From contig JAYVRU010000320.1 of assembly GCA_043775985.1 (NCBI GenBank), forward strand, positions 1 through 62,017: 62,017 nt of DNA. The letters are read 5' to 3'. The notes under the pieces were generated by a model. It did no database searches. It saw only the letters and a list, made by a program, of their open reading frames with translations, and was not told the DNA's origin. Both the position numbers and the translations under genes were made by a program. The stretch comes from Candidatus Kuenenia sp. (GTDB lineage Bacteria; Planctomycetota; Planctomycetia; Planctomycetales; Planctomycetaceae). Positions within the stretch are counted from its first letter, which is position 1. Each line of letters begins with the position of its first letter. Below, in pieces: positions 31,485 to 62,017 of this stretch.

Positions 31485-31679
31485 GAGCCACAAGGCGCTA
31501 GCCGCGGATGTTGTATTTAGTCCTACCCGAGTTACTTCCGTTTAACCCGACTCGAAGAGGAGGCAGGGCACTTCATAACCTCCTCTGCGAGTCGGGTTAA
31601 ACAACTCGATGAACACGTGCCTGGCCGCTCGTGTCGTCACATGATTATATCAACACCCGCGGCTAGCGCCTGGCGGCTC
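31485..31679. repeat. Composite element A: REP unit (fwd), 24-bp-stem hairpin, REP unit (rev)
   Basis: Forward unit gagccacaaggcgctagccgcggatg at 31485-31510. Hairpin arms gtttaacccgactcgaagaggagg (31540-31563) and cctcctctgcgagtcgggttaaac (31579-31602), with 1 mismatch. Reverse unit cacccgcggctagcgcctggcggctc at 31654-31679, abutting the stop of paralogue 5. Confidence 0.9.
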
Positions 31680-34600
31680 ATGGTGGCGGTTCGGCTGTGA
31701 ATACAATTTGATGTCCGTCGGGTGACCAGTCGCAATCGATGATTCTCCAGTTGCGTGGCTGGCCGGGAACGGGAATGAGTTTCTCTGGATCATCGCGTTT
31801 GACAATAAACATCTGAGGTGTCCCGGTGGGTGGATCGAGCCCGGAGAACAGTACCTGATTTCCATCCGGATGCCACGACACATCGGAATGCAGTCGAACA
31901 CCCGTACAAAGAACATTCAGCTCATCGGGCTTGTCGAGATCGATCGCCACGATGGCGACAGCATCGCCCTTATCTTTCGTCAACCTGGTTTTGAAAGCCA
32001 GCGACTTGCTGTCACGAGACCAGCCGATTCCCTTCTCAATCGCGCGAAATGGCGACGGCTGGTCGTCTGACGGGATCAATCGCTGCTCATCAGTTTTCAC
32101 GTCCAGCACAACGATCCGCTTGTTTGAGATCCACGCGATGAAGCGACCATCCGGGGACCATGCACCACTGTGGCCGGCTGGATCCAGATCTTTCGCGACA
32201 ACATTGCCGCCAGTCGCGGGAATGATTGATACGCCCCGCCCATCGTTCGTAATAGCGATTTTTGAGCCGTCCGGTGAGAGGCTCGGCAAAGTGCCGATCG
32301 CGAACGAACGCTGTTGAGAGTTGCTTAACGTGATTTGACTGAGAAGAGAATACTGGCCGTTGTTCATTTCATAGATGATGGACTTGCCATCGTGAGACCA
32401 CTCGGGCCACTTCAATTGCAAGTACACTTCACTGGCGTCCGCAAGCTTTTTGACCTTGTCTGGTGCAGGCGTTTGAACTTTCTGGTCATCAGGAGGAGCA
32501 GAGTTGTCTACATCAAGAAGGTAGAGATTTCTAAGTCCCAAACGCCTCGCGTCTTCAAGGGACTCTGCCCGGACTGAAATCTTCTTCCAGATCGCGCTGA
32601 CCTCGGAAGCTTCAGCACCCTGAGCATAGCAACTTATCCTCAGCAGAAAGTTCCCGGACAGAATGGGGATATCGGGTCCTGCCATTGAATGCAGCAGACG
32701 GAAATTATCGGAGTCCAGCGGGGCGATCAAATAGTGCCACATCGATCCACGCCGAGCCACACGCAGCCGCCCCGAACGACATTCATCTCCAAAAATAGCC
32801 GGATATTCGTAGCGAAATCCTTTGGCCCCTGAACTCAGTATCTCGACCTGGGTGAGTTCTCGAAGAGGAGTATTGGGATGCTGAACCATGCCGCGAAACA
32901 ACAAATGGGCTTCGAACTCCTTCTGGATCACTCGAGGCCCCAGATAGATTGCACAAACACCGTTGTCTGACGCCATGAGTTTGAGGTCAGAGAACTCGGC
33001 GATTACATCAAAGTCGCCGGAAATCACCATTCTTGGACCAACGGATGAAGTAGAGGACTCTTTCGGCCCAGCCGCCCCACGCATATGCAAACCATCGGGG
33101 CTTTGAAAAACATCCCAGTTGCTTTTATCCGACCCTCGCGACGACGTAACCAATTTGCCATCGACGATGCGTTGAATCTGAACCGATTGGCGTTTGTTGT
33201 CAGTGATCACAAATTCCGACTCAACTTCTTCATCAGTCTTGTCAGTGAAATCGAAATCGAAAAACTCCGCCAGTGCGTTGCGATCGCGGTCCAGAACGTC
33301 AGTTTCAGTTCCTTGCAGTTCCTGTTCCGCGACGGCTGGAACGAGCTTTGGCCAGTCGCCTTTCAGGACCACATTTCGCACCCGAGCTTCTGTCTGATCG
33401 CAGTAATAGAACAGTCCGAATGTCCGATCATTTGTTGCGGCGATCTCGGATTCATAGATCACGACTTCTTTCAGCCGCAGTCGGATAACATCGCCCGTCA
33501 TCTGAACAGCCATCCGATTCCATTCGCCGGACTTCAGCGGCAGGGAATCCACGGCAACGCGGTTGCCAGGTGCTGTTCGATTCAGCGGATCGATACTGGC
33601 TGTTTCCCAAACTCCGTTAGTCGTATCGTGGCACTTGACCCCGTCGCGTTCGAGCAGAAACGCTCTGCGACCAAGAGCAGGATGCACGATCGAATTTCCA
33701 TCCTCGCAGAAGAACTCGTAGGTGACTTCGCTGTCCCAGACAAGCGGCCAAAAGTACCGCAGCAATCGCTCAGCCCCCGTACCAGAAAGCTCCGGACTAT
33801 GTTGGCCGACGATTTGCGTTACACCCAAAGCGTCCGATTCCAGCTTCCATGAATTGTCGTCCGGGGTCCACGGATCTTCGTGCCAGGGATTCCAGCCCAG
33901 AAGATGCGAGACTGGTCTTTGCTGAGTGGCCGTTGAGTCTATGCCATCGCTCTCAAGTTTTGCGGACGCCTCCCAGGCTGCGGAACGAAGTTCTGAAATC
34001 CTCACTTCATCAGGCACTACGGGCTCGCCAGTGATACGAACATTCTTAATACTGCCAACACCACTGCTCAGATTTCGAATCGCGAGCCACGGATCATGCT
34101 CCTTTGGCAGAGTGTCGCGAGAAATCAGTCGACTGTTAATGTACCGCGAACAAACGCCGTCTCGCACATCGACTCGAAAACGAAGCCAGTTGTCAACTCG
34201 CGAAAGTTTGGGCTGCAGTTTGATCTCAGGATCAACACGATACATTTCACCAGTCTGCACAGACTCATGATGCCAAACCGGCGTGATCCATCGGCCATTG
34301 ATCAGCGGATGAATCTCCTTCCAGCCAAAGCCGGTACACAGACATTCCAGTGTGTAGTTGCCGCGCAGGGGGCTCGTGAACAACAGAAATTCGTCATCCT
34401 GTTTCGCAAAGACATCGACTTTGCCATGACTGGATTGAATATGTCCGGGAGGCATCCCAAGCCCGTTGGACCAGGAATGCGAACGAGTCACCCAATGCCA
34501 GGACTTCAAGCCCGGTGCTGCCGTCCAGGGCTGAATTCGTTGCTCGGGCGGCAACTTATGATGTCGTATGCGACCAATCAGATGGATTATCAGAACGTCC

Positions 34601-35349
34601 CATTCGGTGGGACCATGCGACTTGCCTGCGTGAATTTGTGAGTCTTCAATGCTGGCCAGAAACAACAAGGCTTCGTCGAGCAACAACACACCTCGCTCCG
34701 CCGCCGTCCAGAGCAGCAGAGTTTCAGGCATACGATCCTGTAGTCCATCAAATCGTTGGTTCACAAAACGCTGGTAGAGTTCATCAGTACTGCGAGCCGC
34801 CTCATTCAAATCCCCCTTTGCGATCGCAATCATCGCCAGCAAAGAAAACTGACATCGCTGCTGAACCTCCCCCTGCACGGTGGCGGACTGCACGGCAAAT
34901 CGCAGTTCATCCAGCTTGCCCAATTCTTTTGCTGCGTCAATCAAATCAAAAACGGGCGACACGAAAATGCCGCCAGTGCGAATTCGATTTTGAGTTCGCT
35001 GAACCCCCGCCTGTATTCTGGCCACATCAACAGGATGATTCGAGACTACCGATTCCGGTGGGTCGGTCGACGTTAATTTTCCGAGCAGTCGAAACTCCCG
35101 GTGCTGTTTCCCCGGCAACACGTGAGATTTGAGAAGCTCATACCGAGCGTCCACAGGGAGACTCTTCGCCGCCTCGCGCAGCCCAAAGACGTTATCTGAC
35201 ACCACATCGTTTTCGAACAAATCACCAACATCAATCGCTGCCGGCTTGTCATCCGCCAAGGCGCAGCATGAAGCAATGCTCAACGCCATCATCACAGCTG
35301 GCAGCAAGAGGCGGATCTTCAACAGAACAATTTGGACGGCTCGGTTCAT
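31678..35349 (-). CDS. Paralogue 5 of 7: DUF1583-like core, one GDFD module and a TolB/PD40-like beta-propeller
   Basis: Family motifs: ARYELLKSHVLPGKQHREFRL, GGIFVSPVFDLIDAAKELGKLDEL, KQDDEFLLFTSPLRGNYTLEC, DPWLAIRNLSSGVGSIKNVRITGEPVVP, VTYEFFCEDGNSIVHPALGRR, TFGLFYYCDQTEARVRNVVLKGDWPKL. Propeller repeats: EWSHDGKSIIY, SLSPDGSKIAI, AWSPDGRFIAW, SWHPDGNQVLF, DWSPDGHQIVF. Confidence 0.9.
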   Translation of the reverse strand: MNRAVQIVLLKIRLLLPAVMMALSIASCCALADDKPAAIDVGDLFENDVVSDNVFGLREAAKSLPVDARYELLKSHVLPGKQHREFRLLGKLTSTDPPESVVSNHPVDVARIQAGVQRTQNRIRTGGIFVSPVFDLIDAAKELGKLDELRFAVQSATVQGEVQQRCQFSLLAMIAIAKGDLNEAARSTDELYQRFVNQRFDGLQDRMPETLLLWTAAERGVLLLDEALLFLASIEDSQIHAGKSHGPTEWDVLIIHLIGRIRHHKLPPEQRIQPWTAAPGLKSWHWVTRSHSWSNGLGMPPGHIQSSHGKVDVFAKQDDEFLLFTSPLRGNYTLECLCTGFGWKEIHPLINGRWITPVWHHESVQTGEMYRVDPEIKLQPKLSRVDNWLRFRVDVRDGVCSRYINSRLISRDTLPKEHDPWLAIRNLSSGVGSIKNVRITGEPVVPDEVRISELRSAAWEASAKLESDGIDSTATQQRPVSHLLGWNPWHEDPWTPDDNSWKLESDALGVTQIVGQHSPELSGTGAERLLRYFWPLVWDSEVTYEFFCEDGNSIVHPALGRRAFLLERDGVKCHDTTNGVWETASIDPLNRTAPGNRVAVDSLPLKSGEWNRMAVQMTGDVIRLRLKEVVIYESEIAATNDRTFGLFYYCDQTEARVRNVVLKGDWPKLVPAVAEQELQGTETDVLDRDRNALAEFFDFDFTDKTDEEVESEFVITDNKRQSVQIQRIVDGKLVTSSRGSDKSNWDVFQSPDGLHMRGAAGPKESSTSSVGPRMVISGDFDVIAEFSDLKLMASDNGVCAIYLGPRVIQKEFEAHLLFRGMVQHPNTPLRELTQVEILSSGAKGFRYEYPAIFGDECRSGRLRVARRGSMWHYLIAPLDSDNFRLLHSMAGPDIPILSGNFLLRISCYAQGAEASEVSAIWKKISVRAESLEDARRLGLRNLYLLDVDNSAPPDDQKVQTPAPDKVKKLADASEVYLQLKWPEWSHDGKSIIYEMNNGQYSLLSQITLSNSQQRSFAIGTLPSLSPDGSKIAITNDGRGVSIIPATGGNVVAKDLDPAGHSGAWSPDGRFIAWISNKRIVVLDVKTDEQRLIPSDDQPSPFRAIEKGIGWSRDSKSLAFKTRLTKDKGDAVAIVAIDLDKPDELNVLCTGVRLHSDVSWHPDGNQVLFSGLDPPTGTPQMFIVKRDDPEKLIPVPGQPRNWRIIDCDWSPDGHQIVFTAEPPP

Positions 35350-35394
35350 TGTGTATGTTTGGCAACCATATCAACGTCAACCATCACCAATCTC

Positions 35395-35562
35395 GCGAGC
35401 CTCAAAACGCTTGCGGCCTGTTGATTTTGTCGCTCAATCAGCTGCTGGAGGCTAACCCACGTTTAAATTTGCTGTGTTTTTTTGGCAAAACCGGACGCTA
35501 GCGCGTTCCGGCTGATTTCGGTCGATAATTAATCAACACCCGCGGCTAACGCCTTGCGGCTC
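35395..35562. repeat. REP cluster: degenerate units, a type-2 unit and a type-1 reverse unit
   Basis: Type-2 unit ccggacgctagcgcgttccggctgat at 35491-35516. Type-1 reverse unit cacccgcggctaacgccttgcggctc at 35537-35562. The stretch aatttgctgtgttttt...aaaaccggacgctagcgcgttccggctgatt...aatcaaca is collinear with 56714-56780. Confidence 0.85.
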
Positions 35563-35636
35563 ACGGGAAGTTCACAAGACAGAGTCGCACCAGCATATCG
35601 ATTCACGTATGAATTTTCTCCTGCAGTAATAGGAAT

Positions 35637-38294
35637 CTACCTCTCTGGTTTGTTTTCTGCCTTTGTTTCAAGGTTCATTGCTGGACCTGTCATGCGTTGT
35701 GCTCGGATGCGGAGATTCTTCCAGATGATGCTGACTTTGCTGACACCATCAACACTGGAGTTCATTCCCGCGACCAGCCTGGCTCCGTCGAATCGAGACG
35801 GCTGCGTGGCCGAGTCTTCAACGTGGATAAGCCGGAATACAGTCGATTTTTCCGGGGCAAACATTGTGTAAGTCTTGTCCGCTCGTCGCGCGAGACGCAG
35901 TGTCCCCGATGTCACGGCTTCGGACCGCTTGTCAAGGAGTCCCTGATGAAACGGCTTGAGCTGCAGCAGGTCATGGTTGACCATTTTTTGCGGAAACTTG
36001 CCTGGATCAACATTCGTGGTCATCGAAGCTGCATGGTGACTGATCGGTTCGTCGGTGAGAGCCATTTGCAGCATTGCGTGGCAGAGTCCGTGTTTTGTGG
36101 GATTGATGTTTAGTTCCTCAAACGCAGCCGTAATGTCGAAATCACCTTCCACAACCAGCAACGGCGTCACGCAGACTCGACTATAGCCCTTGCCATTCAT
36201 TTCAGCATTGATGTGCAGACCATCGGCCTTCGCTTTCACATACTTGTCAGCCCCCTGATCCTGAATCTGAAACAGATTCAGCGGCAAGCCATTTTTCGCG
36301 AAGTTATGAGAGAACTCCGCCGTGAGCTGCGGTAACCCGGCGTCGAGTTCATCGGTTGTTTTGTCTCGAAGTTCCTGATCATGCAGCGCGGGCAATGTCT
36401 TCGGCCAATCACCCCGCCACCGCACGTTGCGAACTCGGATTTCTGTGTCGCCTTCATAGTGAAACAATCCAAAGATCCGCTCGTTTCCTTCGGCGTCCAT
36501 CGTACCACGATAAACCAATTGGCCATTCACCAACACCTCAAGCACGTCACGACGAATCTTTAGCAGCGTATGATTCCATTCGCCTGCCTTGAGCAGCAAT
36601 GGGCTCAAGGCAGAATCATCTGCATCCGGACGACGCTCATTGAGTGGGTCGGCACCGGTGCGATCGAAATGAGCGTCGGTGATGCGATGAATCATGACGC
36701 CTTCGGGATCAAGCAGCAGGACATCGCGGCCAATCGCAGGATGGACGTGTGACTTTTCTGGCTCAAAGAAGAATTCGTAGTCGATCTCACCATCTTCCAT
36801 TACAGGACGTTGATACTGCAGCAGACTTTCTTTGGCAGTCCCGGATCTCGATGCCGTATTGAGCCCCACAATCATGCCAATTCCCGACGCGTCGGTTTCA
36901 TGCCACCAATCATGTTCACTTCGATCACCGATGCCGCCGCCGTAGTATGAGGTCCAGCCGTGAAGCTGATTGTTGTCTGACAACCTGAGCGTGTCTGGAA
37001 TCTGCGGATTTCCCGTGATACAGAGATCCCGAACTCGACCAAACGTCGAAAATGGGACCCGGATCGCAAGCCACGGATCGTGACTGACCGGCAGCGTCTC
37101 CTCATGCACCAATCGACCATCGAGATAAAACGAACAGCGGTTGTCTCTGACCCTGGCCTGAAGCCGCATCCAATCGGTGATCTCGGACAATCGCGGACTG
37201 ATCTTTCCGATCGGCAGTTCACTGCCCACGTGACCCGCAAAATACGCGTCGTGCGAAAACGCGGGGACGACCCACGTACCAGCGACGAGCAATTGAGCTT
37301 CACGATAGTCAAAACCAGTCGACTCGCATTCAATCTCATAGTCGCCCGTTAACGGGCTGCGAAAATACAGGTAGTCATCGTTGTGGTGGGACAGCAGCCG
37401 GACCGATTTTCCGTCCCAGTCCCAATGTGCAACAGGGAAGCCGAGACCATGCGTCCCGAAGTCCTTCGCACTCACTGGAAACCATTCGTGCATGCGTGGC
37501 GCGTCGCCGAACTTTACCACCTGCAGTACCGTTTGCTTGTAGAGACTCAACTGCCCCAGCAATGACGGAATCAAACGATCCCACGAATCCGGGCCGTTGT
37601 TCTTTACTGATCGAATCTGTTGCTGCAGCATCCGAAGAAGAATCTCTTCGGTCGGTTCGCGAAGTCGCGCATGATGAATCGCTTCCGCCACAACAAGCGT
37701 CTCTGGCCACCGATCCTGTAGATCGACAAACACAAGTCTGCGATGCCGGTCGTAAAGATCATTCATCGCTTCACTCGCTGCGGCGAAGTCATCGTCGGCG
37801 ATATTTATCAGAGTCAAAAGGGCCAGCCGGGCTCGTTGCTGGGATTCAGTCTGACTTGAAATCGCGACGGTTCGCTCGCGGAGGTCAGCGACTCGCCCTG
37901 ACACTTTCGCCGCTGCAATCAAATCGAACACAGGTGATACAAGGCTGTCTGAGGCACGACGCTCAATATTTTGAGCAGTATTGGATGCGAAATGGGCGGT
38001 GAGCCGAATTGAGTCATGGCTCTGCGATGGCAACACCCAGTCTGTCAGAGTCCTGTATCGTTGATCAACCGGGAGCGAAATCGAGTTGTCGACAATATGG
38101 TCCGTGTTGTCGGCGAGGACAGTTTCCTCAAAGAGAACGCCGATCGTGCCTTGCATTGGCTGCTTGACCGTATTCCGTTGCGCTGGCTGTGCGGCGAATG
38201 GTTCGCCCTGTGACTGACCGTTCGCCACTTTTATAGCGATCAGCAAAATCAAAATGAATTGGCTGAAATATTTCATCGCCCATAAACGAAACAT
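35637..38294 (-). CDS. Paralogue 6 of 7: DUF1583-like core plus one GDFD module
   Basis: Family motifs: QRYRTLTDWVLPSQSHDSIRL, DSLVSPVFDLIAAAKVSGRV, HHNDDYLYFRSPLTGDYEIECES, DPWLAIRVP...ITGNPQIP, LLQYQRPVMEDGEIDYEFFFEPEKSHVHPAIGRD, IFGLFHYEGDTEIRVRNVRWRGDWPKTLP. One module contains EGDFDITAAF. Confidence 0.9.
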   Translation of the reverse strand: MFRLWAMKYFSQFILILLIAIKVANGQSQGEPFAAQPAQRNTVKQPMQGTIGVLFEETVLADNTDHIVDNSISLPVDQRYRTLTDWVLPSQSHDSIRLTAHFASNTAQNIERRASDSLVSPVFDLIAAAKVSGRVADLRERTVAISSQTESQQRARLALLTLINIADDDFAAASEAMNDLYDRHRRLVFVDLQDRWPETLVVAEAIHHARLREPTEEILLRMLQQQIRSVKNNGPDSWDRLIPSLLGQLSLYKQTVLQVVKFGDAPRMHEWFPVSAKDFGTHGLGFPVAHWDWDGKSVRLLSHHNDDYLYFRSPLTGDYEIECESTGFDYREAQLLVAGTWVVPAFSHDAYFAGHVGSELPIGKISPRLSEITDWMRLQARVRDNRCSFYLDGRLVHEETLPVSHDPWLAIRVPFSTFGRVRDLCITGNPQIPDTLRLSDNNQLHGWTSYYGGGIGDRSEHDWWHETDASGIGMIVGLNTASRSGTAKESLLQYQRPVMEDGEIDYEFFFEPEKSHVHPAIGRDVLLLDPEGVMIHRITDAHFDRTGADPLNERRPDADDSALSPLLLKAGEWNHTLLKIRRDVLEVLVNGQLVYRGTMDAEGNERIFGLFHYEGDTEIRVRNVRWRGDWPKTLPALHDQELRDKTTDELDAGLPQLTAEFSHNFAKNGLPLNLFQIQDQGADKYVKAKADGLHINAEMNGKGYSRVCVTPLLVVEGDFDITAAFEELNINPTKHGLCHAMLQMALTDEPISHHAASMTTNVDPGKFPQKMVNHDLLQLKPFHQGLLDKRSEAVTSGTLRLARRADKTYTMFAPEKSTVFRLIHVEDSATQPSRFDGARLVAGMNSSVDGVSKVSIIWKNLRIRAQRMTGPAMNLETKAENKPER

Positions 38295-38362
38295 GTTCGT
38301 CGTCCAGTCAAAGTCTGGCAGTATTCACTTTGCCCTGCGGCGAGTGTATCAAAATGCTGACG

Positions 38363-41692: not shown

Positions 41693-41953
41693 GAGATCCT
41701 CTTTTGCCATTCCAATTGACGTCCTCAGAATCCACGCGGTCAATCAGGGGATTAACATCCCCCGCTCGCCGAAGCCATGCATCAACCACGATCGCTGCAG
41801 TATAACCAATGCAGCGCCAGATGACGGAACGACGTTTCACCATGCCTCACTTTGGTGCCAGCGATCCCATCGCTGTCGTCCAAACCCGTGGAATCACGCG
41901 GTGAATTTCTGAGAAAGCCGTGTTCCGAAATGCCACGGTGCTTTTGAATTAGT

Positions 41954-41979
41954 GAGCCGTAAGGCGCGAACTGCGGGTG
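41954..41979 (+). repeat. Degenerate solitary REP unit
   Basis: gagccgtaaggcgcgaactgcgggtg differs from the consensus gagccgcaaggcgctagccgcgggtg by 5 mismatches out of 26. Confidence 0.6.
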
Positions 41980-42150
41980 AGTGCTCCAGGATTCAAAGCC
42001 GGGAAACCCGCAGCTATTACATCGCAGCTCAGTCATATGAGTAATCAGTTTTCATCCGATCGTCAGCTTTTTTCTGAATGATTCCGCTGCAATCTTCGAC
42101 TACGCAGTTGAGTCAATGCTTGTACCAATAACAGACTTTGGAAGGCGAAA

Positions 42151-46964: not shown

Positions 46965-47027
46965 ATCAGCCGGAACGCGCTAGCGTCCGGTTCAGGGAAA
47001 ACCGTGAGCTAGCGCTCTGCGGCTGAT
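46965..47027. repeat. REP type-2 unit (reverse) plus a hybrid unit
   Basis: atcagccggaacgcgctagcgtccgg (46965-46990) is the exact reverse complement of the type-2 unit at 35491-35516. gtgagctagcgctctgcggctgat (47004-47027) is a hybrid or degenerate unit. Confidence 0.8.
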
Positions 47028-48872: not shown

Positions 48873-48948
48873 GAGCCGGCGGAAGTGGTGCCATATAGAG
48901 CCTTCGTCAACTGACGAAAGAATTGGCACCACACCAGGCGGCTCGCGC
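48873..48948. repeat. Nested long palindrome with REP-like termini
   Basis: Outer ends gagccggcgg... and ...ccaggcggctc. Middle arms gtggtgcca (48885-48893) and tggcaccac (48924-48932). Inner perfect palindrome ttcgtca-ac-tgacgaa (48903-48918). It lies just downstream of the minus-strand DUF1579 gene. Confidence 0.75.
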
Positions 48949-53181: not shown

Positions 53182-53192
53182 TGTAAGTAATT

Positions 53193-53302
53193 GAGCCGCA
53201 AGGCGCTAGCCGCGGGTAATTTCCTTATGTTTTTAAGACTCGCACCCGCAGCTAGCGCTTTGCGGCTCACAAAATCAACAACCTCCTGGCGCCTTGCGGC
53301 TC
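53193..53302. repeat. REPIN-like doublet plus a half unit
   Basis: Forward unit gagccgcaaggcgctagccgcgggta at 53193-53218. After a 24-nt spacer, reverse unit cacccgcagctagcgctttgcggctc at 53243-53268. Half unit tggcgccttgcggctc at 53287-53302. Confidence 0.9.
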
Positions 53303-53331
53303 ACGCGAACACAATTTTCAAAGGATCTCCC

Positions 53332-54666
53332 ATGAACCCTATGATCTCAAGACGCAGATGGATTTCTTCCCTTGCGGCCAGTGTGGCTGGAATTAGTGCG
53401 AGCGGGTGGTTTCCGCTATTGGCTCAGCAGCAATTGGCGGAAGCGAAGAAGAAGTCTCGCCGTGTCATCCTGCTGTGGATGAGCGGCGGGCCATCTCAGA
53501 CGGACACCTGGGACTTAAAGCCGGGGCACGCCAACGGCGGTGAGTTCAAGGAAATCCAAACGGCATCACCTGGGCTGCGATTCAGTGAGCATTTGCCGAA
53601 ACTTGCCGCAATGTCAGACAAACTGGCCGTGCTGCGAGGTCTTTCGACACGTGAAGGCGATCACGGGCGAGGCACCTATTATATGAGAACCGGCTACGCT
53701 CCGATGGGGCCGGTTCGATATCCGAGCATTGGAAGTTCGCTGGCCAATCAATTGGGATCGCCTGAATTTGGCCTGCCCGGCTGCGTCAGTGTCGGAGCAT
53801 TTCGAACGTTTAACGAAGACGCGTTTGGTGCAGGATTTCTGGGCCCAAAAATGCAGCCTTTGATGGTTGGGGCTTCGGACATGACCGGTGCGATGACGAC
53901 CGGTGGCGACGGATTTCCTCAACTTCAAGTCCAGGGAATGACTCGTCCGGCCAGTATTACGGATGTGCGAATGGAAAAACGTCTGAACATGTGGAAGAAC
54001 CTGCAATCGGGTTTTCTGGCCGAACATCAGGCCGGGGCTCCGAAGACTCATAATACGATTTACGAAAGTGCCGTGAGGCTGATGAACAGCAAGGACGCCG
54101 AGGCCTTTGATCTTTCAAAAGAACCAATCGAACTGCGTGAAGCGTACGGACGCAACGTTTTTGGACAGGGTTGCTTGTTAGCTCGGCGATTGATCGAACA
54201 GGGCGTATCATTCGTGGAAGTGTCCCTCGGGACCAGCAGCGGCGGAGCGGGCTGGGATACTCATACGGATAACTTTAATGCAGTGAAAGCTCTGTCCACG
54301 GATCTCGACAACGGCTGGGCGACGCTGATGAAGGACCTATCCGATCGCGGCCTGTTGGAATCGACCACGATTCTTTGGATGGGCGAGTTCGGCCGGACTC
54401 CTCAAATCAACGGTACTAATGGACGTGACCATTTTCCTGCCGCCTGGTCTGCTGTGCTCGCCGGAGCGGGTATCGCTGGTGGTCAGGCGTATGGCCGAAC
54501 CAGTGACAGTGGCATGGCTGTGGAAGACGGGCAGATGAGTGCCGAAGATCTGCTGGCAACCTTGTGCATGGCAGCCGGTGTGGAAGAGAAAGCCACGCAG
54601 ATCGATGACAACGGGCGGCCCATTCGAATCACAGAAGGAGTGGCCGCTAAAGCCGTGTTAGCGTGA
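53332..54666 (+). CDS. DUF1501 (sulfatase-like fold) protein with Tat-type signal
   Basis: The N-terminus MNPMISRRRWISSLAASVAGISA looks like a twin-arginine signal. Family motifs: VILLWMSGGPSQTDTWDLKPG, REGDHGRGTYYMRTG, GAGWDTHTDNF, WMGEFGRTPQINGTNGRDHFP. The track start at 53191 (TTG) lies inside REP units (peptide SRKALAAG), so I prefer ATG 53332 with AAAGGA 7 nt upstream. Confidence 0.9.
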   Translation: MNPMISRRRWISSLAASVAGISASGWFPLLAQQQLAEAKKKSRRVILLWMSGGPSQTDTWDLKPGHANGGEFKEIQTASPGLRFSEHLPKLAAMSDKLAVLRGLSTREGDHGRGTYYMRTGYAPMGPVRYPSIGSSLANQLGSPEFGLPGCVSVGAFRTFNEDAFGAGFLGPKMQPLMVGASDMTGAMTTGGDGFPQLQVQGMTRPASITDVRMEKRLNMWKNLQSGFLAEHQAGAPKTHNTIYESAVRLMNSKDAEAFDLSKEPIELREAYGRNVFGQGCLLARRLIEQGVSFVEVSLGTSSGGAGWDTHTDNFNAVKALSTDLDNGWATLMKDLSDRGLLESTTILWMGEFGRTPQINGTNGRDHFPAAWSAVLAGAGIAGGQAYGRTSDSGMAVEDGQMSAEDLLATLCMAAGVEEKATQIDDNGRPIRITEGVAAKAVLA

Positions 54667-54678
54667 ATGTCCGTCGGT

Positions 54679-54829
54679 GAGCCGCAAGGCGCTAGCCGCG
54701 GGTGCAGTTGATCGTTTAACCCGACTCGAAGAGGAGGTTGGCAATCAGCTCCTCCTCTTCGAGTCGGGTCAAACGAAAACGGTCAATGTGTGATGAAAAC
54801 AAACACCTGCGGCTAGCGCCTTGCGGCTC
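54679..54829. repeat. Composite element B: REP unit (fwd), 24-bp-stem hairpin, REP unit (rev)
   Basis: Forward unit at 54679-54704. Hairpin arms gtttaacccgactcgaagaggagg (54714-54737) and cctcctcttcgagtcgggtcaaac (54751-54774). Reverse unit cacctgcggctagcgccttgcggctc at 54804-54829. The architecture and hairpin arm sequence are the same as at 31485-31679. Confidence 0.9.
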
Positions 54830-54844
54830 AATTGAAAAAATAAT

Positions 54845-56644
54845 ATGCAGCCTTTCCATTCTATAATCAAATTTTTGAAGCGTCTCGCGATAGTCGGACT
54901 GCTTTCACTCGCAGCATTCTCAGCCGCACAGGCTGACGAAAACGAACTCACTGTCCCTGTGCGAATTCTCGGCGCTCCGGCTCCCGAACCAGCGATGGGG
55001 CCGATGATGGTGGCACGCGAAGAAGCACCGCCGGCGACTCCTGCTGCGAAGATGCCGCAATATCAGTTGCATCATAAGGATCTCGGCGATCTTGGCGACC
55101 CGTCGTCGCCGCACATTCGATTCGTGCTCGCGCTGCCCGAAAAGCCTCTGCTGATCGAAGCCGCAATCTTCATTGATGGCCAGCCGTTTCGACAGGCTCG
55201 GGAAAAACGAGTTCAGGAGATCATGCGGTACATCTCCGATCCCGTTGCCTTCAACGCCGAAGCGGCAAAGATTGCAGCGGAAGCTCAAGCGGCTGCTACT
55301 GCCGCTGAGGCGACGAAGAAACTGGGGCTTTTGGAATCAGTCGTCAACCTAGTGACCGGCAACGAGGCAGCAGCCGAAACAACTCCGCAAGTCACACCGG
55401 AAAAAGATCAAACGCCTGCTCCAGAAGAAGCGACTCCGGATGCAAAGGCCGAGGCAGTCGAAACACCAGATCCTGCAGAAGAAAAGCCAGAAGCCGCGAC
55501 TCCAGAGCCCGAGACGCCCGCTGAACCAGTTGTTCCGGCAACGCCCAAATACTCGGCACCTGCCACGATCTACGAACGCATCGAACGTTACACAAAATCT
55601 ACCGGCACGCCGCCGAGCGTCGATGAAGTTCGATGGTTGCTCACAAACTGGGTGGATGGCCCGTTGCTGTTGTTCCTGAACGACAACTTCCAGCGTTTCC
55701 GAGCCGACCAGCAGCCTGTATTCAAAGTCCTTGATCGAGATCGCGACGGCATCGTGTCGGCTGACGAATTGACAAAGGCCGTCGCGGCGTTTCAGGAATG
55801 CGATCTCAATCGTGACGACATGGTCGATGCCACCGAACTTGCTGAGGCGGCGAAAGATGTTCGCGATCAGCCAACGAATTCAACGGGCAAGCTGATCTTC
55901 CGCCTTCCTGATGAGAAAACCGCGACTGTTTTTCTGCGTCGCGTGGCAGCTCACTATGTGGCTCCGGATGCAAAGTTACCAACACCGCCGCAGTTCGATC
56001 CGGACAGCGATGGTGTCCTGTCTCCTGAAGAACTCAAGCAACTCCAGGAACGCCCGGCCGACGTTCGTTTAAAGATCGAACTGACGACCGGCCAGCCGGA
56101 AGCATCTCGATTGACCATCGACGGATTCAGCGACGAGTTTGCCGGACTGAGGGACTCGACGAAGAAGAATCCATCGAGCATGACGCTCAACTTCCCGTCG
56201 TTCAATCTGGAATTTCTGGCCGCACAAGGAGCCAGCAGCGATCAAATTTCAATAGGAGCTGTCAATGACGGCTACGCCATGCTTCAGGAAATCGATCCGA
56301 ATGCCGACGGTCGATTTTCGATCCGCGAGCTGCGGCAGTTGAATGAACGCCTCGCAGCTTTTGATCAGAATTCCGACGGACAAATTGGATCCGGTGAGAC
56401 TCATCCGACGTTTCGAGTCTGCATCGGCCTGGGACCGACGGCCCATCAGCCGCTGGCGTTGTTGCGTGAAATCAATTCACCGAGCGCGGCAGCTCAGGAA
56501 CCTGGCCCGGATTGGTTCATAGAGATGGATAAGAACAAGGATTACGATTTAACTCGCCAGGAGTTTCCTGGCACAGACGAACAGTTTAAGCAGCTTGATA
56601 GTGATGACGATGAATTGATCAGTTCTGTAGAAGCCAATAAATGA
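54845..56644 (+). CDS. Secreted multi-EF-hand-like (Ca-binding loop) protein with a Pro/Glu/Ala-rich linker
   Basis: Signal-like N-terminus: IVGLLSLAAFSAAQA. The linker reads ...PEEATPDAKAEAVETPDPAEEKPEAATPEPETPAEPVVPATP. Seven D-x-(D/N)-x-D-type loops are present: DRDRDGIVSADEL, DLNRDDMVDATEL, DPDSDGVLSPEEL, DPNADGRFSIRELRQL, DQNSDGQIGSGE, DKNKDYDLTRQEF, DSDDDELISSVE. Confidence 0.8.
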   Translation: MQPFHSIIKFLKRLAIVGLLSLAAFSAAQADENELTVPVRILGAPAPEPAMGPMMVAREEAPPATPAAKMPQYQLHHKDLGDLGDPSSPHIRFVLALPEKPLLIEAAIFIDGQPFRQAREKRVQEIMRYISDPVAFNAEAAKIAAEAQAAATAAEATKKLGLLESVVNLVTGNEAAAETTPQVTPEKDQTPAPEEATPDAKAEAVETPDPAEEKPEAATPEPETPAEPVVPATPKYSAPATIYERIERYTKSTGTPPSVDEVRWLLTNWVDGPLLLFLNDNFQRFRADQQPVFKVLDRDRDGIVSADELTKAVAAFQECDLNRDDMVDATELAEAAKDVRDQPTNSTGKLIFRLPDEKTATVFLRRVAAHYVAPDAKLPTPPQFDPDSDGVLSPEELKQLQERPADVRLKIELTTGQPEASRLTIDGFSDEFAGLRDSTKKNPSSMTLNFPSFNLEFLAAQGASSDQISIGAVNDGYAMLQEIDPNADGRFSIRELRQLNERLAAFDQNSDGQIGSGETHPTFRVCIGLGPTAHQPLALLREINSPSAAAQEPGPDWFIEMDKNKDYDLTRQEFPGTDEQFKQLDSDDDELISSVEANK

Positions 56645-56793
56645 GCCGCAAGGCGCTAGCTGCGGGTGTTGATCTAGTCTGTTTATCAGCCGCCGGGCGC
56701 TAGCCCCCGGTTGAATTTGCAGTGTTTTTGTACCGAAAACTGGACGCTAGCGCGTTCCGGCTGATTAAATCAACAGCCCGCTAGCCGCGGGTG
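56643..56793. repeat. REP cluster (type-1 fwd, variant, type-2, truncated type-1)
   Basis: gagccgcaaggcgctagctgcgggtg at 56643-56668, overlapping the TGA of the EF-hand gene. cagccgccgggcgctagcccccggtt at 56687-56712. ctggacgctagcgcgttccggctgat at 56740-56765. cagcccgctagccgcgggtg at 56774-56793. Confidence 0.85.
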
Positions 56794-56805
56794 CTGATTT
56801 GAAAT

Positions 56806-56943
56806 GGCGAGCGGGGGATGTGAATCCCCTGATAGATCGTTCTGGCAACACGCCCCAATCACTTGAATACCACGAACTCATGCACAAATAGAATCACATA
56901 ATCGCAGGAATCACAATCAGGGGACTGACGTCCCCCGCTCGCC
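56806..56943. mobile_element. MITE-like element or second REPIN family: 28-nt terminal inverted repeats around an 82-nt core
   Basis: Left end ggcgagcgggggatgtgaatcccctgat (56806-56833). Right end atcaggggactgacgtcccccgctcgcc (56916-56943). They are complementary at 25 of 28 positions. Each end also carries its own small hairpin (GGGGA-N6-TCCCC; GGGGAC-TGAC-GTCCCC). Confidence 0.6.
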
Positions 56944-56951
56944 AAACTCAA

Positions 56952-56977
56952 CGCCCGCAGCTAGCGCCTTGCGGCTC
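56952..56977 (-). repeat. REP type-1 unit (reverse)
   Basis: cgcccgcagctagcgccttgcggctc, 22 nt upstream of the MoxR ATG. Confidence 0.85.
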
Positions 56978-56998
56978 ACTTGTTGGAATAAAATTGAT

Positions 56999-58084
56999 AT
57001 GAATCGAATCGACTCCCACCTTGCAACAGACCGAACCCGCACAGGCAGCGACAACGGGCACGCGAAGGCTCCGATAGTGGAGAATTCTCAGGACGTCGCC
57101 GAAGCGATCGACGCCATGCACGAGCGGTTCGTGGAGCTGCGAAGGCAGCTTGCGGGCGTGATTGTGGGGCAGGATGAAGTCGCCGAACAACTCCTGATCG
57201 CGATGCTCTGCAAAGGTCACTGTATCCTGCAGGGGATGCCGGGGCTCGCGAAGACAATGCTCGTGTCGACCATGGCGTCGCTGATCGATCTGTCGTTTCG
57301 ACGAGTCCAGTTTACTCCCGACCTGATGCCGGGCGACATCACTGGCACTGAGGTTTTGCAGGAAGACCAGACAACGGGCAAGCGAGTCTTCCAATTCATC
57401 GAAGGGCCATTGTTCGGCAACGTGATTCTGGCCGATGAAATCAATCGCACACCGCCGAAGACTCAGAGTGCTCTCCTGGAAGCGATGCAGGAACGCCAGT
57501 TGACCGTGTGTGGCAAGACGTACAAGCTTCCGGATCCGTTCTTCGTTCTTGCGACGCAGAATCCAGTGGAGACTGAAGGCACGTATCCGCTGCCGGAAGC
57601 TCAGCTGGACCGATTCCTGCTGAAGATCCATGTGAAGTATCCATCCCGCGCGGAAGAACTTGAGATCGCTCGTCGCCAGACAACGGACTATAGCTTCAAG
57701 ACGAAAACGGTCATTGATATCGACCACATGCACGCGATGCAGTCGCTGGTTCGCAACGTGGTTGTCGCGGATCATGTTTACGAAGCAGCGCTGGATCTTG
57801 TGCGAGGAACTCGGCCTGACGAAGGTTCCATGGCGGCCGATCTTCAGAGTCTCATCCAATGGGGCGCGGGGCCTCGTGCGACGATTGCACTGCTGCTGGC
57901 CGCGAAGGCTCGTGCATTGCTGAACCGTCGATGTCATGCGACGACGGCGGATCTGGCTGCGGTTGCGTTGCCGGTGTTACGGCATCGAGTGATCCTGACG
58001 TTTAATGCCGAAGCCGCCGGGATCGATGCAGATTCAGTGCTGAACAGAATTCTGGAGAATACGAAGTCGTTGCAAAAGGCCTAA
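56999..58084 (+). CDS. MoxR-family AAA+ ATPase
   Basis: Walker A GMPGLAKT and Walker B VILADEINR, plus ATQNPVETEGTYPLPEAQLDRF and the C-terminal GAGPRATIALLLAAKARALL. I prefer ATG 56999; the track TTG at 56969 lies inside a REP unit. Confidence 0.95.
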   Translation: MNRIDSHLATDRTRTGSDNGHAKAPIVENSQDVAEAIDAMHERFVELRRQLAGVIVGQDEVAEQLLIAMLCKGHCILQGMPGLAKTMLVSTMASLIDLSFRRVQFTPDLMPGDITGTEVLQEDQTTGKRVFQFIEGPLFGNVILADEINRTPPKTQSALLEAMQERQLTVCGKTYKLPDPFFVLATQNPVETEGTYPLPEAQLDRFLLKIHVKYPSRAEELEIARRQTTDYSFKTKTVIDIDHMHAMQSLVRNVVVADHVYEAALDLVRGTRPDEGSMAADLQSLIQWGAGPRATIALLLAAKARALLNRRCHATTADLAAVALPVLRHRVILTFNAEAAGIDADSVLNRILENTKSLQKA

Positions 58085-58094
58085 GGAAAGTACA

Positions 58095-59051: not shown

Positions 59052-59066
59052 GGACCAATCACCAAC

Positions 59067-61346
59067 GTGGGTTTTCTGAGTATCACATTTCTGGTCGCTT
59101 TGCCTTTAGCATTGGCACCGATTCTATTGCACTTGTTTGATCGTCGACGCAATGTCACGATCGAGTGGGGAGCGATGGAATTCCTGCTGGATGCCGCCAC
59201 GCGCCGGACGAGTGCTCGAAAGCTCAAGCAATGGCTGTTGCTGGCTCTGCGAGTCCTCGCGATCGCCGCGTTGGTGCTGGCGCTGGCAAGACCGAAACTG
59301 CCGGGGCATTGGTTCGGAAACAACGATCGAGGCGAAACAGTTTTTGTCATCGACAATTCGATGTCCACGCTTCGCGAATCGGAAGACTCGACGCTCTTCG
59401 CAAAACTCATTGTACGTGCGACCACAGAACTGAATGCGATGCCGTCTGGCGACACTGTTCGCATTCTGCTGGCGTCACCTTATCCGGTGTGGGCGACGGC
59501 CGGGGATTTGCGAGTTGACTCAGGCTCGCGAGACATGCTTGCCGAGCAGCTTAAGGAGATCCGTCCAACTAATGGAAGCAGTGATCTGCTGGCGGCGATG
59601 TTTACAGCCGTGCAGGCGGATTCAGAACAGAAGACTGAAAAGCGTCGCATCATTTTGCTCACCGATGGTCAGGCGGCGGACTGGAAAACGGCGGATACCA
59701 GCGGCTGGCAGCGATTTCAGGAAGTACTCAAGTCGGCAATTGTTCCGACTCAACTGGACGTGATTGAACTGAACGCGAAAACTGCCAAGTCGACAAATAT
59801 CGCGGTGAACACGCTACGATCGAATCGCCTGGTAACGGGCATCGATCAGACGTTCACAGTCACCGCGCAGATTCAGAATCACTCGGCCGTCGATTCTCCG
59901 GGCTGCACGGTCTCGTGGCAGGTCGGAACGCATGAAGAACAGACGGCCGAAGTTCCATCGTTGACCGGCGGCAATACACATGAAGCTGTTTGGCGTCATT
60001 CGTTTTCAAAGCCGGGCGTCTATTCACTTTCTTGCCAACTCAAAGCAGATGACAATCTCGCGCCCGACAACCGCGCGACGGTTGTGATTGAAGTCATCGA
60101 AGAAGTGCCGGTGCTCGTCGTTGAAAGCGCAGCGGGCCAGGCAGAACTTCAGCAGGATGCATTCTTTCTTCAGGCCGCGATGGGATGGATCAACGGCGAA
60201 GCGATGGCGGCTCACAGTGTCTACCGACCGGTCACTGTCAGCCCTGATCAATTGGAAGGCATGAGTCTGGCTGAGTACCGAGCCGTCATTATCCCAAACT
60301 TCACAGCGATCTCGGAACGGTCGGTTGCAGAGCTGAAGGCTTTCGCATTCAACGGTGGCGGCGTCTGGATTGCGCTTGGTCCGCGAGCCGACATCGAAAT
60401 GTTCAACCAGTACGTGTTTGCTCATGGTGACGGATTGTCTCCGCTTGCCATTGATGGGATCGTCGCTGAGCAAAGTGCCGATGCCGCTCCGAAGATCAAT
60501 GCCGGGTTGCGAGAGCATCCGGCGACGATGGCTTTGGCAGACAACGAAAAGCTGGACACGAGCGATATTCGAGTCCGTCGTCGATTTCGATTTGTGCCGC
60601 CTCCACGTGATGAAGATGTGTCGGCCTTGTTGAGTCTTACCAACGGCGAATCGCTGGCGGTCGAAAAGTATGTTGGGCAGGGACGAGTCATCGTGCTGGG
60701 CATTCCTTTAACGATGCGCGACTGGAGTGAGCTGGCGAAGTCTCAGGCGTTTGTTGTGATGGTGCAGGATTGGGTGGCGTATCTGACTCAGCCTCAGGCG
60801 ACGCGGCATAATCTTTCGCCCGGTGACCCTATTTCCGTGCATCTTGCTGAGACCGATAACCGCGACGCGTTTCTGAAAACGCCACACGGTGACCAGATCG
60901 AACTGACGGCCGACACGGTTCCTGATGGAGTCATCTTTCGCTCAAGCCGGACAATTTTGCCAGGGGATTACAGCTTGCAGTTGGGTCTTTCGGGAGATTC
61001 CATCCCGTTTCATGTGCAGCGAAATCCGAAGGAGTCGAATCTCACAGGGCTTTCCGACGAGGATCACAAGCTTCTCGCGGATACGGCTGGCTTGAGTGGC
61101 AGTTTGTTAAATCCGAATCTGAGCAGTACCAGTCAGAGCGATCCAGTCTGGCCGATGCTGTTGATGATGTTGATCGCGTTTATGAGTTTTGAACTGATTC
61201 TGTCTGGAATGATTTCTCGCGAACGTTTCGGCACTGCCGCGATCTCGGAGACATCGGAGAGAATTGGCGACGCCGGTTTTTGGATGCCGGTAGAGTTTGG
61301 GAAGAAGACCGTCTCCCGTGAGCCGCAAGGCGCTAGCCGCGGGTGA
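59067..61346 (+). CDS. BatA-N / von Willebrand A domain membrane protein
   Basis: GTG start. The N-terminal double-TM aerotolerance-type motif is FLSITFLVALPLALAPILLHLFDRRR...EWGAMEFL. The vWA MIDAS motif DxSxS is VFVIDNSMST. There is a C-terminal TM (VWPMLLMMLIAFMSFELILSGMI). The last 9 codons (REPQGASRG*) are encoded by the REP unit at 61320-61345. Confidence 0.9.
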   Translation: MGFLSITFLVALPLALAPILLHLFDRRRNVTIEWGAMEFLLDAATRRTSARKLKQWLLLALRVLAIAALVLALARPKLPGHWFGNNDRGETVFVIDNSMSTLRESEDSTLFAKLIVRATTELNAMPSGDTVRILLASPYPVWATAGDLRVDSGSRDMLAEQLKEIRPTNGSSDLLAAMFTAVQADSEQKTEKRRIILLTDGQAADWKTADTSGWQRFQEVLKSAIVPTQLDVIELNAKTAKSTNIAVNTLRSNRLVTGIDQTFTVTAQIQNHSAVDSPGCTVSWQVGTHEEQTAEVPSLTGGNTHEAVWRHSFSKPGVYSLSCQLKADDNLAPDNRATVVIEVIEEVPVLVVESAAGQAELQQDAFFLQAAMGWINGEAMAAHSVYRPVTVSPDQLEGMSLAEYRAVIIPNFTAISERSVAELKAFAFNGGGVWIALGPRADIEMFNQYVFAHGDGLSPLAIDGIVAEQSADAAPKINAGLREHPATMALADNEKLDTSDIRVRRRFRFVPPPRDEDVSALLSLTNGESLAVEKYVGQGRVIVLGIPLTMRDWSELAKSQAFVVMVQDWVAYLTQPQATRHNLSPGDPISVHLAETDNRDAFLKTPHGDQIELTADTVPDGVIFRSSRTILPGDYSLQLGLSGDSIPFHVQRNPKESNLTGLSDEDHKLLADTAGLSGSLLNPNLSSTSQSDPVWPMLLMMLIAFMSFELILSGMISRERFGTAAISETSERIGDAGFWMPVEFGKKTVSREPQGASRG

Positions 61347-61445
61347 GTGCAAGAGAAATTAAAAAGTATAAGTAGAACAAGACTTTTCCAAATGAATCAT
61401 AAGAACAGGTTCAGACAGGTACCCGCGGCTAGCGCCCGGCGGCTC
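61320..61445. repeat. REPIN-like doublet (fwd 61320-61345, rev 61420-61445, 74-nt spacer)
   Basis: gagccgcaaggcgctagccgcgggtg ... tacccgcggctagcgcccggcggctc. Confidence 0.9.
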
Positions 61446-61986
61446 GGAAACGGAAACAGGCAATCATGATTGAACGGGGCACCTACTTCATCACATGGAC
61501 GACATATGGTACGTGGTTACCGGGCGATGAAAGTGGCTGGAGAAAGCACGGTGAAAGCGTAAAGCCGCCACAACCGCGACTCGAGGAATGGTGTCGCGAG
61601 CAGATGACAGGAGAGCCAGTGGTGTTGACGGAGTTACAACGAAAGAAGGTCGAATCGGTTTGCTATGAACATGCTGAGCATCGACGGTGGGAACTGCATG
61701 CGGTGAATGCTCGAACCAATCATGTCCATTTGGCTGTGACGGCAGACCAGGCTTCGAAGACAGTGCGTGATCAGTTCAAGGCCAATGCAACTCGGGTTCT
61801 TCGTTTGGAGCCTGAACCAATGACCGCGGGAATAATTTGGACAAAGGGTGGGGATGTTGAAATTGTTGATGGCGAACAGGATCTTGAGAATGTTGTGAAA
61901 TACATAGTCGAAGCGCAGGACAGAATGGATCGTGGTAAATGAGCCACAGGTAGGTCTGGTGAGCCGCAAGGCGCTAGCCGCGGGTG
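61420..61986 (+). mobile_element. RAYT-like gene bracketed by inverted REP units
   Basis: The reverse REP unit ends 20 nt before the ATG (61420-61445). The forward REP unit starts 18 nt after the stop (61961-61986). A further reverse unit starts at 62010 and is cut by the window end. Confidence 0.75.
61466..61942 (+). CDS. HUH / Y1 (IS200-IS605-type) transposase-like protein, candidate REP-associated tyrosine transposase (RAYT)
   Basis: 158 aa. The N-terminus is YFITWTTYGTWLPGD. The HUH motif is NHVHLAV. The C-terminal Tyr motif is VVKYIVEAQD. The gene is single and carries no TnpB-like partner. Confidence 0.8.
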   Translation: MIERGTYFITWTTYGTWLPGDESGWRKHGESVKPPQPRLEEWCREQMTGEPVVLTELQRKKVESVCYEHAEHRRWELHAVNARTNHVHLAVTADQASKTVRDQFKANATRVLRLEPEPMTAGIIWTKGGDVEIVDGEQDLENVVKYIVEAQDRMDRGK

Positions 61987-62017
61987 AATGTCAGAAAAAC
62001 GTGCACAGACACCCGCG
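61961..62017. repeat. REP doublet truncated by window end
   Basis: Forward unit gagccgcaaggcgctagccgcgggtg at 61961-61986. The start of a reverse unit, cacccgcg, lies at 62010-62017. Confidence 0.8.

Follow-up and report, generated by a model that had tools for sequence, protein, structure and literature searches.

What are the short hairpin repeats that occupy gaps between genes in a planctomycete contig, and which enzyme, if any, spreads them? The contig is JAYVRU010000320.1 of Candidatus Kuenenia sp. (Planctomycetota; assembly GCA_043775985.1), analyzed over its whole length of 62,017 nucleotides (nt), which we call the window. A first-pass annotation had read a 26-nt motif in it as a family of repetitive extragenic palindromes (REPs), many of them in inverted doublets with the geometry of REPINs (REP doublets forming hairpins). 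That the GTGAGCCGCAAGGCGCTAGCCGCGGGT repeats are a genuine family of the REP/REPIN type, with a hairpin unit of 26 to 27 bases, is confirmed. Furthermore, our data make it likely that the repeats belong to a REP/REPIN-type system ("REPtron") of the class 3 TnpA-Y1 kind, in which a 158-amino-acid (aa) Y1/HUH transposase encoded at the contig end would be the enzymatic partner.

A dispersed repeat family with sharp boundaries

The 26-mer GAGCCGCAAGGCGCTAGCCGCGGGTG has 13 matches in the window at up to three mismatches, where 100 shuffles lead one to expect 0.00; a 14-mer core also gives 13 matches at up to one mismatch, and the type-2 variant gives three. Under looser matching, the number of units and remnants is 24, with one more cut off by the window end after its first bases (Table 1). 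Every copy listed in the first-pass annotation was recovered (type-2 units at 35489, 46967 and 56738, hybrids at 47000 and 56687, the truncated copy at 56768, the half unit at 53277-53302), and the degenerate doublet 22192/22242 and the remnant at 42005 come in addition. GCTAGC occurs 18 times across the 62 kb, and 18/18 sites lie within units. The tetranucleotide CTAG has 28 occurrences, 18 of them being these GCTAGC centres, and is thus strongly avoided outside the repeats.

From the window and 118 genome loci, 263 units were collected, and an information-content alignment was made of 259 units from the window and other genomes. The aligned units delimit the 27-mer GTGAGCCGCAAGGCGCTAGCCGCGGGT with sharp edges and flanks of about 0 bits; information content is about 1.6 to 2 bits over most of positions 0 to 25 and dips to about 1.0 to 1.2 bits at the covarying or variable positions 5, 9, and 22.

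The motif is more than a local duplication. The exact 20-mer GCAAGGCGCTAGCCGCGGGT is present in at least 118 8-kb blocks from at least 46 other, species-level assemblies, which among the matches listed are nearly all Planctomycetota (Planctomycetaceae, Pirellulaceae, Fuerstiella, Schlesneria, Ca. Laterigemmans). Within the window, copies are concentrated at 49.9-62 kb, and the window ends inside the right arm of a doublet (62011-62017), so that the assembly probably broke at the repeat. Both observations would suit a local duplication, an assembly artefact, an attC site, or an array like those of clustered regularly interspaced short palindromic repeats (CRISPR), an origin whose probability we regard as practically negligible: local duplication is refuted by the occurrence of GCAAGGCGCTAGCCGCGGGT in the other assemblies, where the contexts are unrelated, the units do not share their flanks, the spacing is irregular, and no integrase or cas genes were seen among the open reading frames (ORFs) scanned.

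Covarying hairpins and head-to-head doublets

As a single strand, the 27-nt unit is a hairpin: the 5′ foot GTGAG is followed by an outer stem (CCGC/GCGG) and, past an A-rich bulge of 2 nt, by an inner stem (GGC/GCC) closed by a GCTA tetraloop. The first base of the foot is G in 75% of the units, and the second is T in 98%. Positions 5 and 22 form C:G in 184 units and G:C in 67 and are unpaired in 12. Across 115 distinct cores, 88.7% of the stem cells are paired, compared to 20 to 52% with slid partners; the covariation score is 0.238 versus 0.074 in shuffles and was reached by 0/500 of them, and the stems hold 79 double changes versus 20.8 in shuffles. The folding energy of a lone unit is unremarkable (z = −1.4), and the support for the unit structure is therefore covariation, not energy. 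The type-2 and hybrid units of the window retain the foot and the GCGCTAGC centre, with compensated stems. Type-2 units as such stand as first described, but the label "forward" given to some of them does not, since aligning the common foot and loop shows them to be reversed with respect to type 1.

Over the window and the 118 loci, units pair head to head (forward, then reverse) in 105 cases and tail to tail in 7, which bears out the inverted-doublet geometry noticed at the outset. In the window, most units belong to such head-to-head doublets. The spacers cluster at 9, 13 to 14, and 24 to 26 nt, and the doublets fold as long hairpins (z = −7 to −16). For the pair 53193-53268 (−30.4 kcal/mol, z = −7.3), the predicted stem and 24-nt loop are found as proposed, but the stem has 3 mismatches in 26 and not 2. 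In many doublets, one arm has the C:G and the other the G:C stem type (heterodimers), and in the gap 56634-56986, five units and a different palindrome family are nested into a mosaic. The same doublets, loop included, occur on unlinked contigs of one assembly, and the doublet (REPIN) appears to be the form that multiplies.

Doublets of this kind resemble two terminal inverted repeats around a short core, with variable spacers that sometimes hold other sequences. The repeats might hence be miniature inverted-repeat transposable elements (MITEs) of a DDE transposase, the 26-nt unit being the terminal inverted repeat of an unseen cut-and-paste enzyme. We consider this exceedingly improbable, as no target-site duplication of any length is present at 104 doublets (offsets 0 to 2), single units are also common, each arm is itself a covarying hairpin, and the neighbourhood has a Y1 transposase but none of the DDE type.

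A Y1/HUH transposase gene flanked by the repeats

The decisive feature, which the first-pass annotation did not notice, is the transposase gene at 61466-61942. Its product matches Pfam PF01797 (Y1_Tnp, IS200-like; E = 2e-8) and carries the motifs NHVHLAV (HUH), IWTKGGD (W), and KYIVEAQ with the catalytic Tyr (Y-x4-Q); across 28 homologues, the HUH, W, and Y-x4-Q residues vary little or not at all. A search of the PDB by sequence gave marginal matches to IS608 TnpA only (E ~0.1). The AlphaFold2 model (predicted local distance difference test [pLDDT], 72.7) has 2F4F, 2VIH, and 2XMA as top Foldseek matches (probability 1.0, template modelling [TM] score 0.5 to 0.67), and its fold matches the TnpA proteins of IS200, IS608, and ISDra2 as well as 4ER8, the REP-associated tyrosine transposase (RAYT) of Escherichia coli, with probability 1.0. 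JGI labels many homologues "REP element-mobilizing transposase RayT." The gene is present once in the window, and it is flanked by doublets, 61320/61420 upstream and 61961/62011 (cut) downstream, an arrangement that favors the REP/REPIN reading of the first-pass annotation. By analogy, the 158-aa HUH/Tyr enzyme is most likely the mobiliser of the hairpin units.

The enzyme family comprises 633 clusters (50% identity) at E ≤ 1e-10. Homologues were found in 80 metagenomic loci, 66 of which had enough flanking sequence (350 nt upstream and downstream) to be tested. In 65/66 of these, both flanks have a common exact 12-mer, compared to 2/26 control regions, and doublets on both sides of the homologous gene are seen in loci L088, L111, and L119, with a like geometry in most of the metagenomic loci. 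Moreover, GCGCTAGC-type units stand in the flanks at 36/37 loci whose enzyme is at least 52% identical to the window protein, at 8/14 loci with 45 to 52% identity, often with compensated stems, and at 0/15 loci with less than 45% identity, where the flanking hairpins are of another type, with GCAA loops. This tracking of enzyme clade by repeat type is the strongest argument for a coupling of the two, and it suggests that enzyme and hairpin are functionally linked.

Is the gene, then, simply an ordinary autonomous insertion sequence (IS) of the IS200/IS605 type, selfish and horizontally moving, with the dispersed doublets as nonautonomous derivatives resembling MITEs or palindrome-associated transposable elements (PATEs)? 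The Y-x4-Q motif is of the IS200 type, IS200, IS608, and ISDra2 TnpA are the best structural matches, and the NCBIfam score for IS200 lies slightly above that for RAYT. The expected recognition of subterminal hairpins on single-stranded DNA would be a further likeness to IS608 and ISDra2, and insertion 3′ of a short target without duplication agrees with the T^ junction described below. Gene synteny is not seen past close relatives, and Quentin et al. (2018; BMC Genomics 19:475, PMC6006769) found class 3 to resemble both IS and REPtrons, with three close copies in Solibacter. Against such an element stand the single copy in the window, the same operon neighbourhood for enzymes just 69 to 78% identical, the homologue clusters on 1 to 4 contigs each instead of many, the lack of tnpB, and the vast excess of short repeats over the gene. 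Furthermore, inverted doublets or arrays flank the gene on either side, where an IS would have a single left-end and a single right-end hairpin, both on one strand. We therefore regard an ordinary IS as quite unlikely.

Comparison with class 3 and canonical REP systems

Class 3 of the TnpA-Y1 enzymes was defined by Quentin et al. (PMC6006769) through the signatures NHVH, W[TA], and Y-x4-Q. It is found mainly in Planctomycetes, Acidobacteria, and Proteobacteria, principally in the first of these, and its genes are flanked by atypical hairpins with a CnGA foot, in up to ~600 copies in Solibacter; the supplementary table of the paper gives CACGAGCCGGAAGCGTGAGCGACGGGT for Planctopirus limnophila and CCGAGCCGCGACCGTAAGGGAGCGGA for Legionella. 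The window enzyme has the same three signatures, a conserved N-terminal extension, and a length in the range of ~155 to 160 aa, and its gene is likewise flanked by several small hairpins that are multicopy elsewhere in the genome. The hairpins agree in a foot nGA(G) followed by GCCGC, an outer stem CCG(C/G)/(C/G)CGG, a bulge, a short inner stem, and a GNNA tetraloop. They differ in the foot (G-T-G-A with a nearly invariant T here, C-n-G-A as published) and in the loop (GCTA within the invariant GCGCTAGC here; GTAA, GTGA, GTTA, and GTCA as published), and the tyrosine motif is YIVEAQ (Y+4 = A, not E) where YV[VI][AENY]EQ was published.

The canonical REP/REPIN-RAYT systems of Proteobacteria, reportedly described by Nunvar in 2010 and by Bertels and Rainey in 2011, offer a second comparison. 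With E. coli REPs and their bacterial interspersed mosaic elements (BIMEs), served by TnpA-REP (PDB 4ER8), and with Pseudomonas REPINs, the repeats of the window have in common the imperfect palindrome with an unpaired 5′ foot, the extragenic location, the inverted doublets that form long hairpins, and the BIME-like heterodimers and mosaics, together with a Y1/HUH gene flanked by repeats, the absence of target duplication, and the covariation of repeat and enzyme. However, the enzyme has neither Y-x2-NP nor WQ/WE and is not a class 2 RAYT, the foot is GTGAG and not GT[AG]G, the stem is bulged and ends in a tetraloop, and one core is common to many species and families, whereas REPINs are usually lineage specific. 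Foot and protein signature thus place the system outside the canonical class 2 RAYT/GTAG-REP group, although by analogy it may work like one of its members.

The first-pass annotation had supposed that REP/REPIN systems are not documented in Planctomycetota. This was mistaken: class 3 is known mainly from Planctomycetes, including Planctopirus limnophila with the same architecture (PMC6006769), and GTAG-type REPs were reported from Planctomycetes by Di Nocera et al. in 2013 (PMC3733652). Hence, the system is not the first of its kind in the phylum. The treatment in PMC6006769 is one paragraph with one planctomycete example and does not include doublet geometry, a phylum-wide core, enzyme covariation, or empty and filled sites; a literature search found no paper on class 3 later than Quentin et al. 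(2018). New here are the GCGCTAGC family, its spread over many Planctomycetota, the doublet geometry, the covariation of enzyme and hairpin, and the empty and filled orthologous sites.

It has been suggested that class 3 enzymes might be intermediates in the evolution from IS200 transposases to domesticated RAYTs. The locus and its relatives offer a defined 27-nt substrate, a doublet form, clade-paired hairpins, and an orthologous empty/filled site, and with these, cognate-substrate biochemistry and tests of vertical REPIN persistence outside Proteobacteria become directly designable. Gimesia and Planctopirus relatives are cultivable.

Position of the units relative to genes

By a crude open-frame test, 10% of the units lie in open-frame interiors, compared to 65% of random positions, in agreement with the early impression that the motif avoids coding sequence. 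In the range covered by the first-pass annotation, the units of the window stand between genes or at gene ends, as it had stated; overlaps with ORFs are over-long extensions or gene ends. The ORFs 53191-54666 and 56969-58084 touch units solely through over-long upstream extensions, their orthologues in the close relative L119 being 47 and 36 aa shorter. At units 31654 and 56643, a flanking T and the first two bases GA of the unit form the stop codon of the adjoining gene (gene 31678-35349 on the minus strand and the EF-hand gene, respectively), and the BatA-like gene has its final 9 codons in unit 61320. For annotation, this means that units create false ORF extensions, assembly breaks, and "junk" C termini; the recurring peptides EPQGASRG and SRKALAAG, already attributed to the repeat, are the two open reading frames of the unit, as read from the sequence.

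A selected role of the unit as supplier of the TGA stop was considered and rejected. Open frames of at least 100 codons end at the unit TGA in 36 units, and 27 and 25 enter units in the other two frames, so that there is no clear frame preference, and the enrichment over random TGAs is only ~1.7-fold; we treat stop formation as a by-product.

Could the hairpins instead be host RNA signals, such as intrinsic terminators or stabilisers of mRNA 3′ ends, that are kept by selection and lie near a transposase gene by accident? Units do overlap stop codons or follow them directly, pointing the same way as the gene upstream; T-rich sequence comes after some copies (e.g., 35489), and the core is unusually well conserved among species. 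Yet the sequence logo has no consistent T-tract after the unit, and a terminator scan (18 versus 13.1 ± 4.9) is not enriched and seldom flags units. No Rfam family matches the motif: Rfam 15 gave 0 matches at the gathering score and, in E-value mode, sub-threshold matches to microRNA precursors, that is, to generic long hairpins. Inverted doublets and nested mosaics are unnecessary for termination, and the repeats flank the gene in 65/66 enzyme loci, with a type that tracks the enzyme clade. An origin as RNA signals is hence highly improbable. As secondary effects of a class 3 REPtron, hairpins at mRNA 3′ ends probably influence transcript stability or translation termination, by analogy with E. 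coli REPs, which do so.

The minus-strand region 19966-41743 holds seven paralogous DUF1581/DUF1583 genes (679 to 1,223 aa), with units at three of the junctions. One degenerate doublet (22190-22269) apparently lies inside a member of this array, in the 5′ part of the minus-strand ORF 19966-22401 (DUF1581/1583 paralogue), between the conserved domain and an N terminus that resembles a signal peptide and can be aligned with the other paralogues. Its in-frame translation is ...SRKALAAGE...HAASGLRL..., and it may be a tolerated in-frame intragenic REPIN insertion of ~26 codons.

Filled and empty sites in relatives

Locus L119 is syntenic with the window from 50.6 to 62 kb (genes for PSD1, DUF1501, EF-hand, MoxR, DUF58, BatA, and the transposase); its enzyme is 78% identical to that of the window, and it carries 19 units. 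The unit at the BatA C terminus and the doublets around the transposase gene are insertions common to both. The MoxR/DUF58 gap is 10 nt in the window versus 112 nt in L119, where it holds a doublet and an extra unit, with the left junction precisely behind the stop-codon T (the window reads TAA, L119 reads T+GAGCC). Taken with the lack of target duplication and the identical doublets on unlinked contigs, these junctions agree with insertion or excision beside a T without duplication, the behaviour expected of Y1 transposases. A collapsed remnant, GTGAGCCTTGCGGCTCAC, stands in the DUF58/BatA gap of L119 (7577-7637) and not in the window. It resembles two outer doublet ends joined after loss of the interior and, judged from this likeness, may be the footprint of an excision or deletion.

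Weighing the model

Several points weigh against a class 3 REPtron. The presence/absence differences just described could stem not from transposition but from deletions promoted by the hairpins. The transposase gene is syntenic in two close relatives only, L119 and L120, with enzymes 69 to 78% identical and the gene in the same operon neighbourhood; in the 80 metagenomic loci, BatA, DUF58, and MoxR lie next to none of the homologues (0/80), and the downstream gene is common to L120 only. The protein scores 19.2 bits with the RAYT model NF047646 (cut-off, 80) and 29 bits with the NCBIfam IS200 model (cut-off, 55), it has no canonical RAYT motif Y-x2-NP, and the foot is GTGAG, not GTAG. The genome data amount to 62 kb, and the copy numbers of units and transposase gene are window counts. 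To our knowledge, class 3 is represented by a single paragraph in the literature and no experiments, and we know of no biochemical or genetic test of any of its enzymes, so that mobilisation is inferred by analogy.

Finally, the same 20-mer core is found across dozens of species with enzymes ~52 to 78% identical. Its conservation exceeds that of usual REPINs, and there might be an additional host constraint. One may imagine that the class 3 system of Planctomycetota is an ancient, largely vertically inherited, and domesticated REPtron, whose near-invariant 27-nt hairpin (loop region GCGCTAGC, foot GTGAG) is kept by enzyme recognition together with host co-option as a gene-end signal, for example in mRNA 3′-end protection, operon punctuation, or termination control at stops. 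If true, this would explain why enzymes have diverged to ~50% identity and dozens of species nevertheless keep the same core; for the time being, we think such domestication unlikely.

For a class 3 REPtron, IS200/IS608 TnpA and the E. coli RAYT may serve as models of the mechanism. The 158-aa enzyme would bind the folded hairpin on single-stranded DNA, e.g., at the replication fork, recognizing foot and loop and cleaving with its tyrosine, and the doublet, moved or copied, would enter its new site immediately 3′ of a T, with no target duplication arising. Copies would survive only where they are harmless and would thus build up between genes and at extreme 3′ gene ends; in the latter position, some would provide a gene with its stop codon or its final few codons.

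Coordinates of the units and minor observations

Table 1. Transposase gene and repeat units of the window
Feature	Position	Strand	Remarks
RAYT-like class 3 Y1/HUH transposase gene, 158 aa	61466..61942	+	Pfam PF01797, motifs, AlphaFold2 fold
Type-1 unit, 0 mismatches	61320..61345	+	Left arm of doublet upstream of transposase gene
Type-1 unit, 3 mismatches	61420..61445	-	Right arm of upstream doublet, 74-nt spacer
Type-1 unit, 0 mismatches	61961..61986	+	Left arm of doublet downstream of transposase gene
Start of unit alone (ACCCGCG)	62011..62017	-	Right arm of downstream doublet, cut by window/contig end
Type-1 unit	53193..53218	+	Left arm of compact doublet, PSD1/DUF1501 gap
Type-1 unit	53243..53268	-	Right arm of compact doublet, 24-nt loop
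Half unit	53277..53302	-	Retains 5′ half GAGCCGCAAGGCGCCAG only
Type-1 unit, 0 mismatches	54679..54704	+	Left arm of doublet, DUF1501/EF-hand gap
Type-1 unit	54804..54829	-	Right arm; 99-nt spacer contains second, unrelated palindrome
Type-1 unit	56643..56668	+	Outer left arm of mosaic 56634-56986, at EF-hand gene stop
Variant unit CAGCCGCCGGGCGCTAGCCCCCGGTT	56687..56712	+	Compensated inner stem GGGC/GCCC
Type-2 unit CAGCCGGAACGCGCTAGCGTCCAGTT	56738..56763	-	
Variant, 3′ half of unit only	56768..56793	+	Preceded by TTAAATCAACAG
Type-1 unit	56952..56977	-	Outer right arm of mosaic
Type-1 unit, 2 mismatches	31485..31510	+	Left arm of doublet between two DUF1583 paralogues
Type-1 unit	31654..31679	-	Right arm of doublet, at stop of gene 31678-35349(-)
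Type-1 unit	35537..35562	-	Downstream of gene 35637-38294(-)
Type-2 unit	35489..35514	-	Tandem with 35537, then TTTT
Type-2 unit	46967..46992	+	Left arm of tight variant doublet
Variant unit CAGCCGCAGAGCGCTAGCTCACGGTT	47000..47025	-	Inner stem GAGC/GCTC, right arm of doublet
Degenerate unit, 4 mismatches	41954..41979	+	GCTAGC site lost
Strongly degenerate unit, 8 mismatches	42005..42030	-	Partner of 41954
Degenerate type-1 unit, 3 mismatches	22192..22217	+	Beyond range of first-pass annotation
Degenerate unit, 4 mismatches	22242..22267	-	Partner of 22192

Some variant units recur in other genomes. The junction TTAAATCAACAG-NCC-GCTAGCCGCGGGT (window 56765-56793) is also present in L010 (1587), L023 (1749), and L109 (3658), and the "truncated" unit at 56768 is therefore a distinct conserved variant and not a random product; it possibly has a hairpin of its own (CCCGC/GCGGG). 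Type-2 units (CAGCCGGAACGCGCTAGCGTCCGGTT; window 46967-47025, 35489, and 56738) pair as doublets elsewhere (L047, L063, L083) and resemble the hairpins GTGAGCCGAACGCGCTAGCGTCGGGCC of a different enzyme clade (L163 and L148). Judged from the sequence, this likeness may point to an additional class 3 paralogue in another part of the genome.

Two further palindromes are interspersed with the units. The spacers at 31540-31602 and 54712-54776 nest an unrelated palindrome, (GT)TTAACCCGACTCGAAGAGGAGG, followed by a 13- to 15-nt loop and the complement, and the composite hairpins are very stable (−66 and −70 kcal/mol); other loci have weak matches only (L031, L085). A third small hairpin family, GGCGAGCGGGGGAYGTNARTCCCCTGAT, stands at 41743-41770, 56805-56833, and 56916-56944 and also in L044, L053, and L106. 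It makes an inverted pair within the mosaic at 56.6-57.0 kb and recurs among other assemblies of Planctomycetota; no gene associated with it was found.

An inverted repeat GAGCCGGCGGAAGTGGTGCCA/TGGCACCACACCAGGCGGCTC at 48873-48944 begins with a GAGCCG foot, has no GCTAGC, and may be another decayed or divergent unit pair. A 15-nt tandem repeat of the CCACCGTATCCGC type, with at least 4 copies, lies at 17817-17889 within overlapping ORFs.

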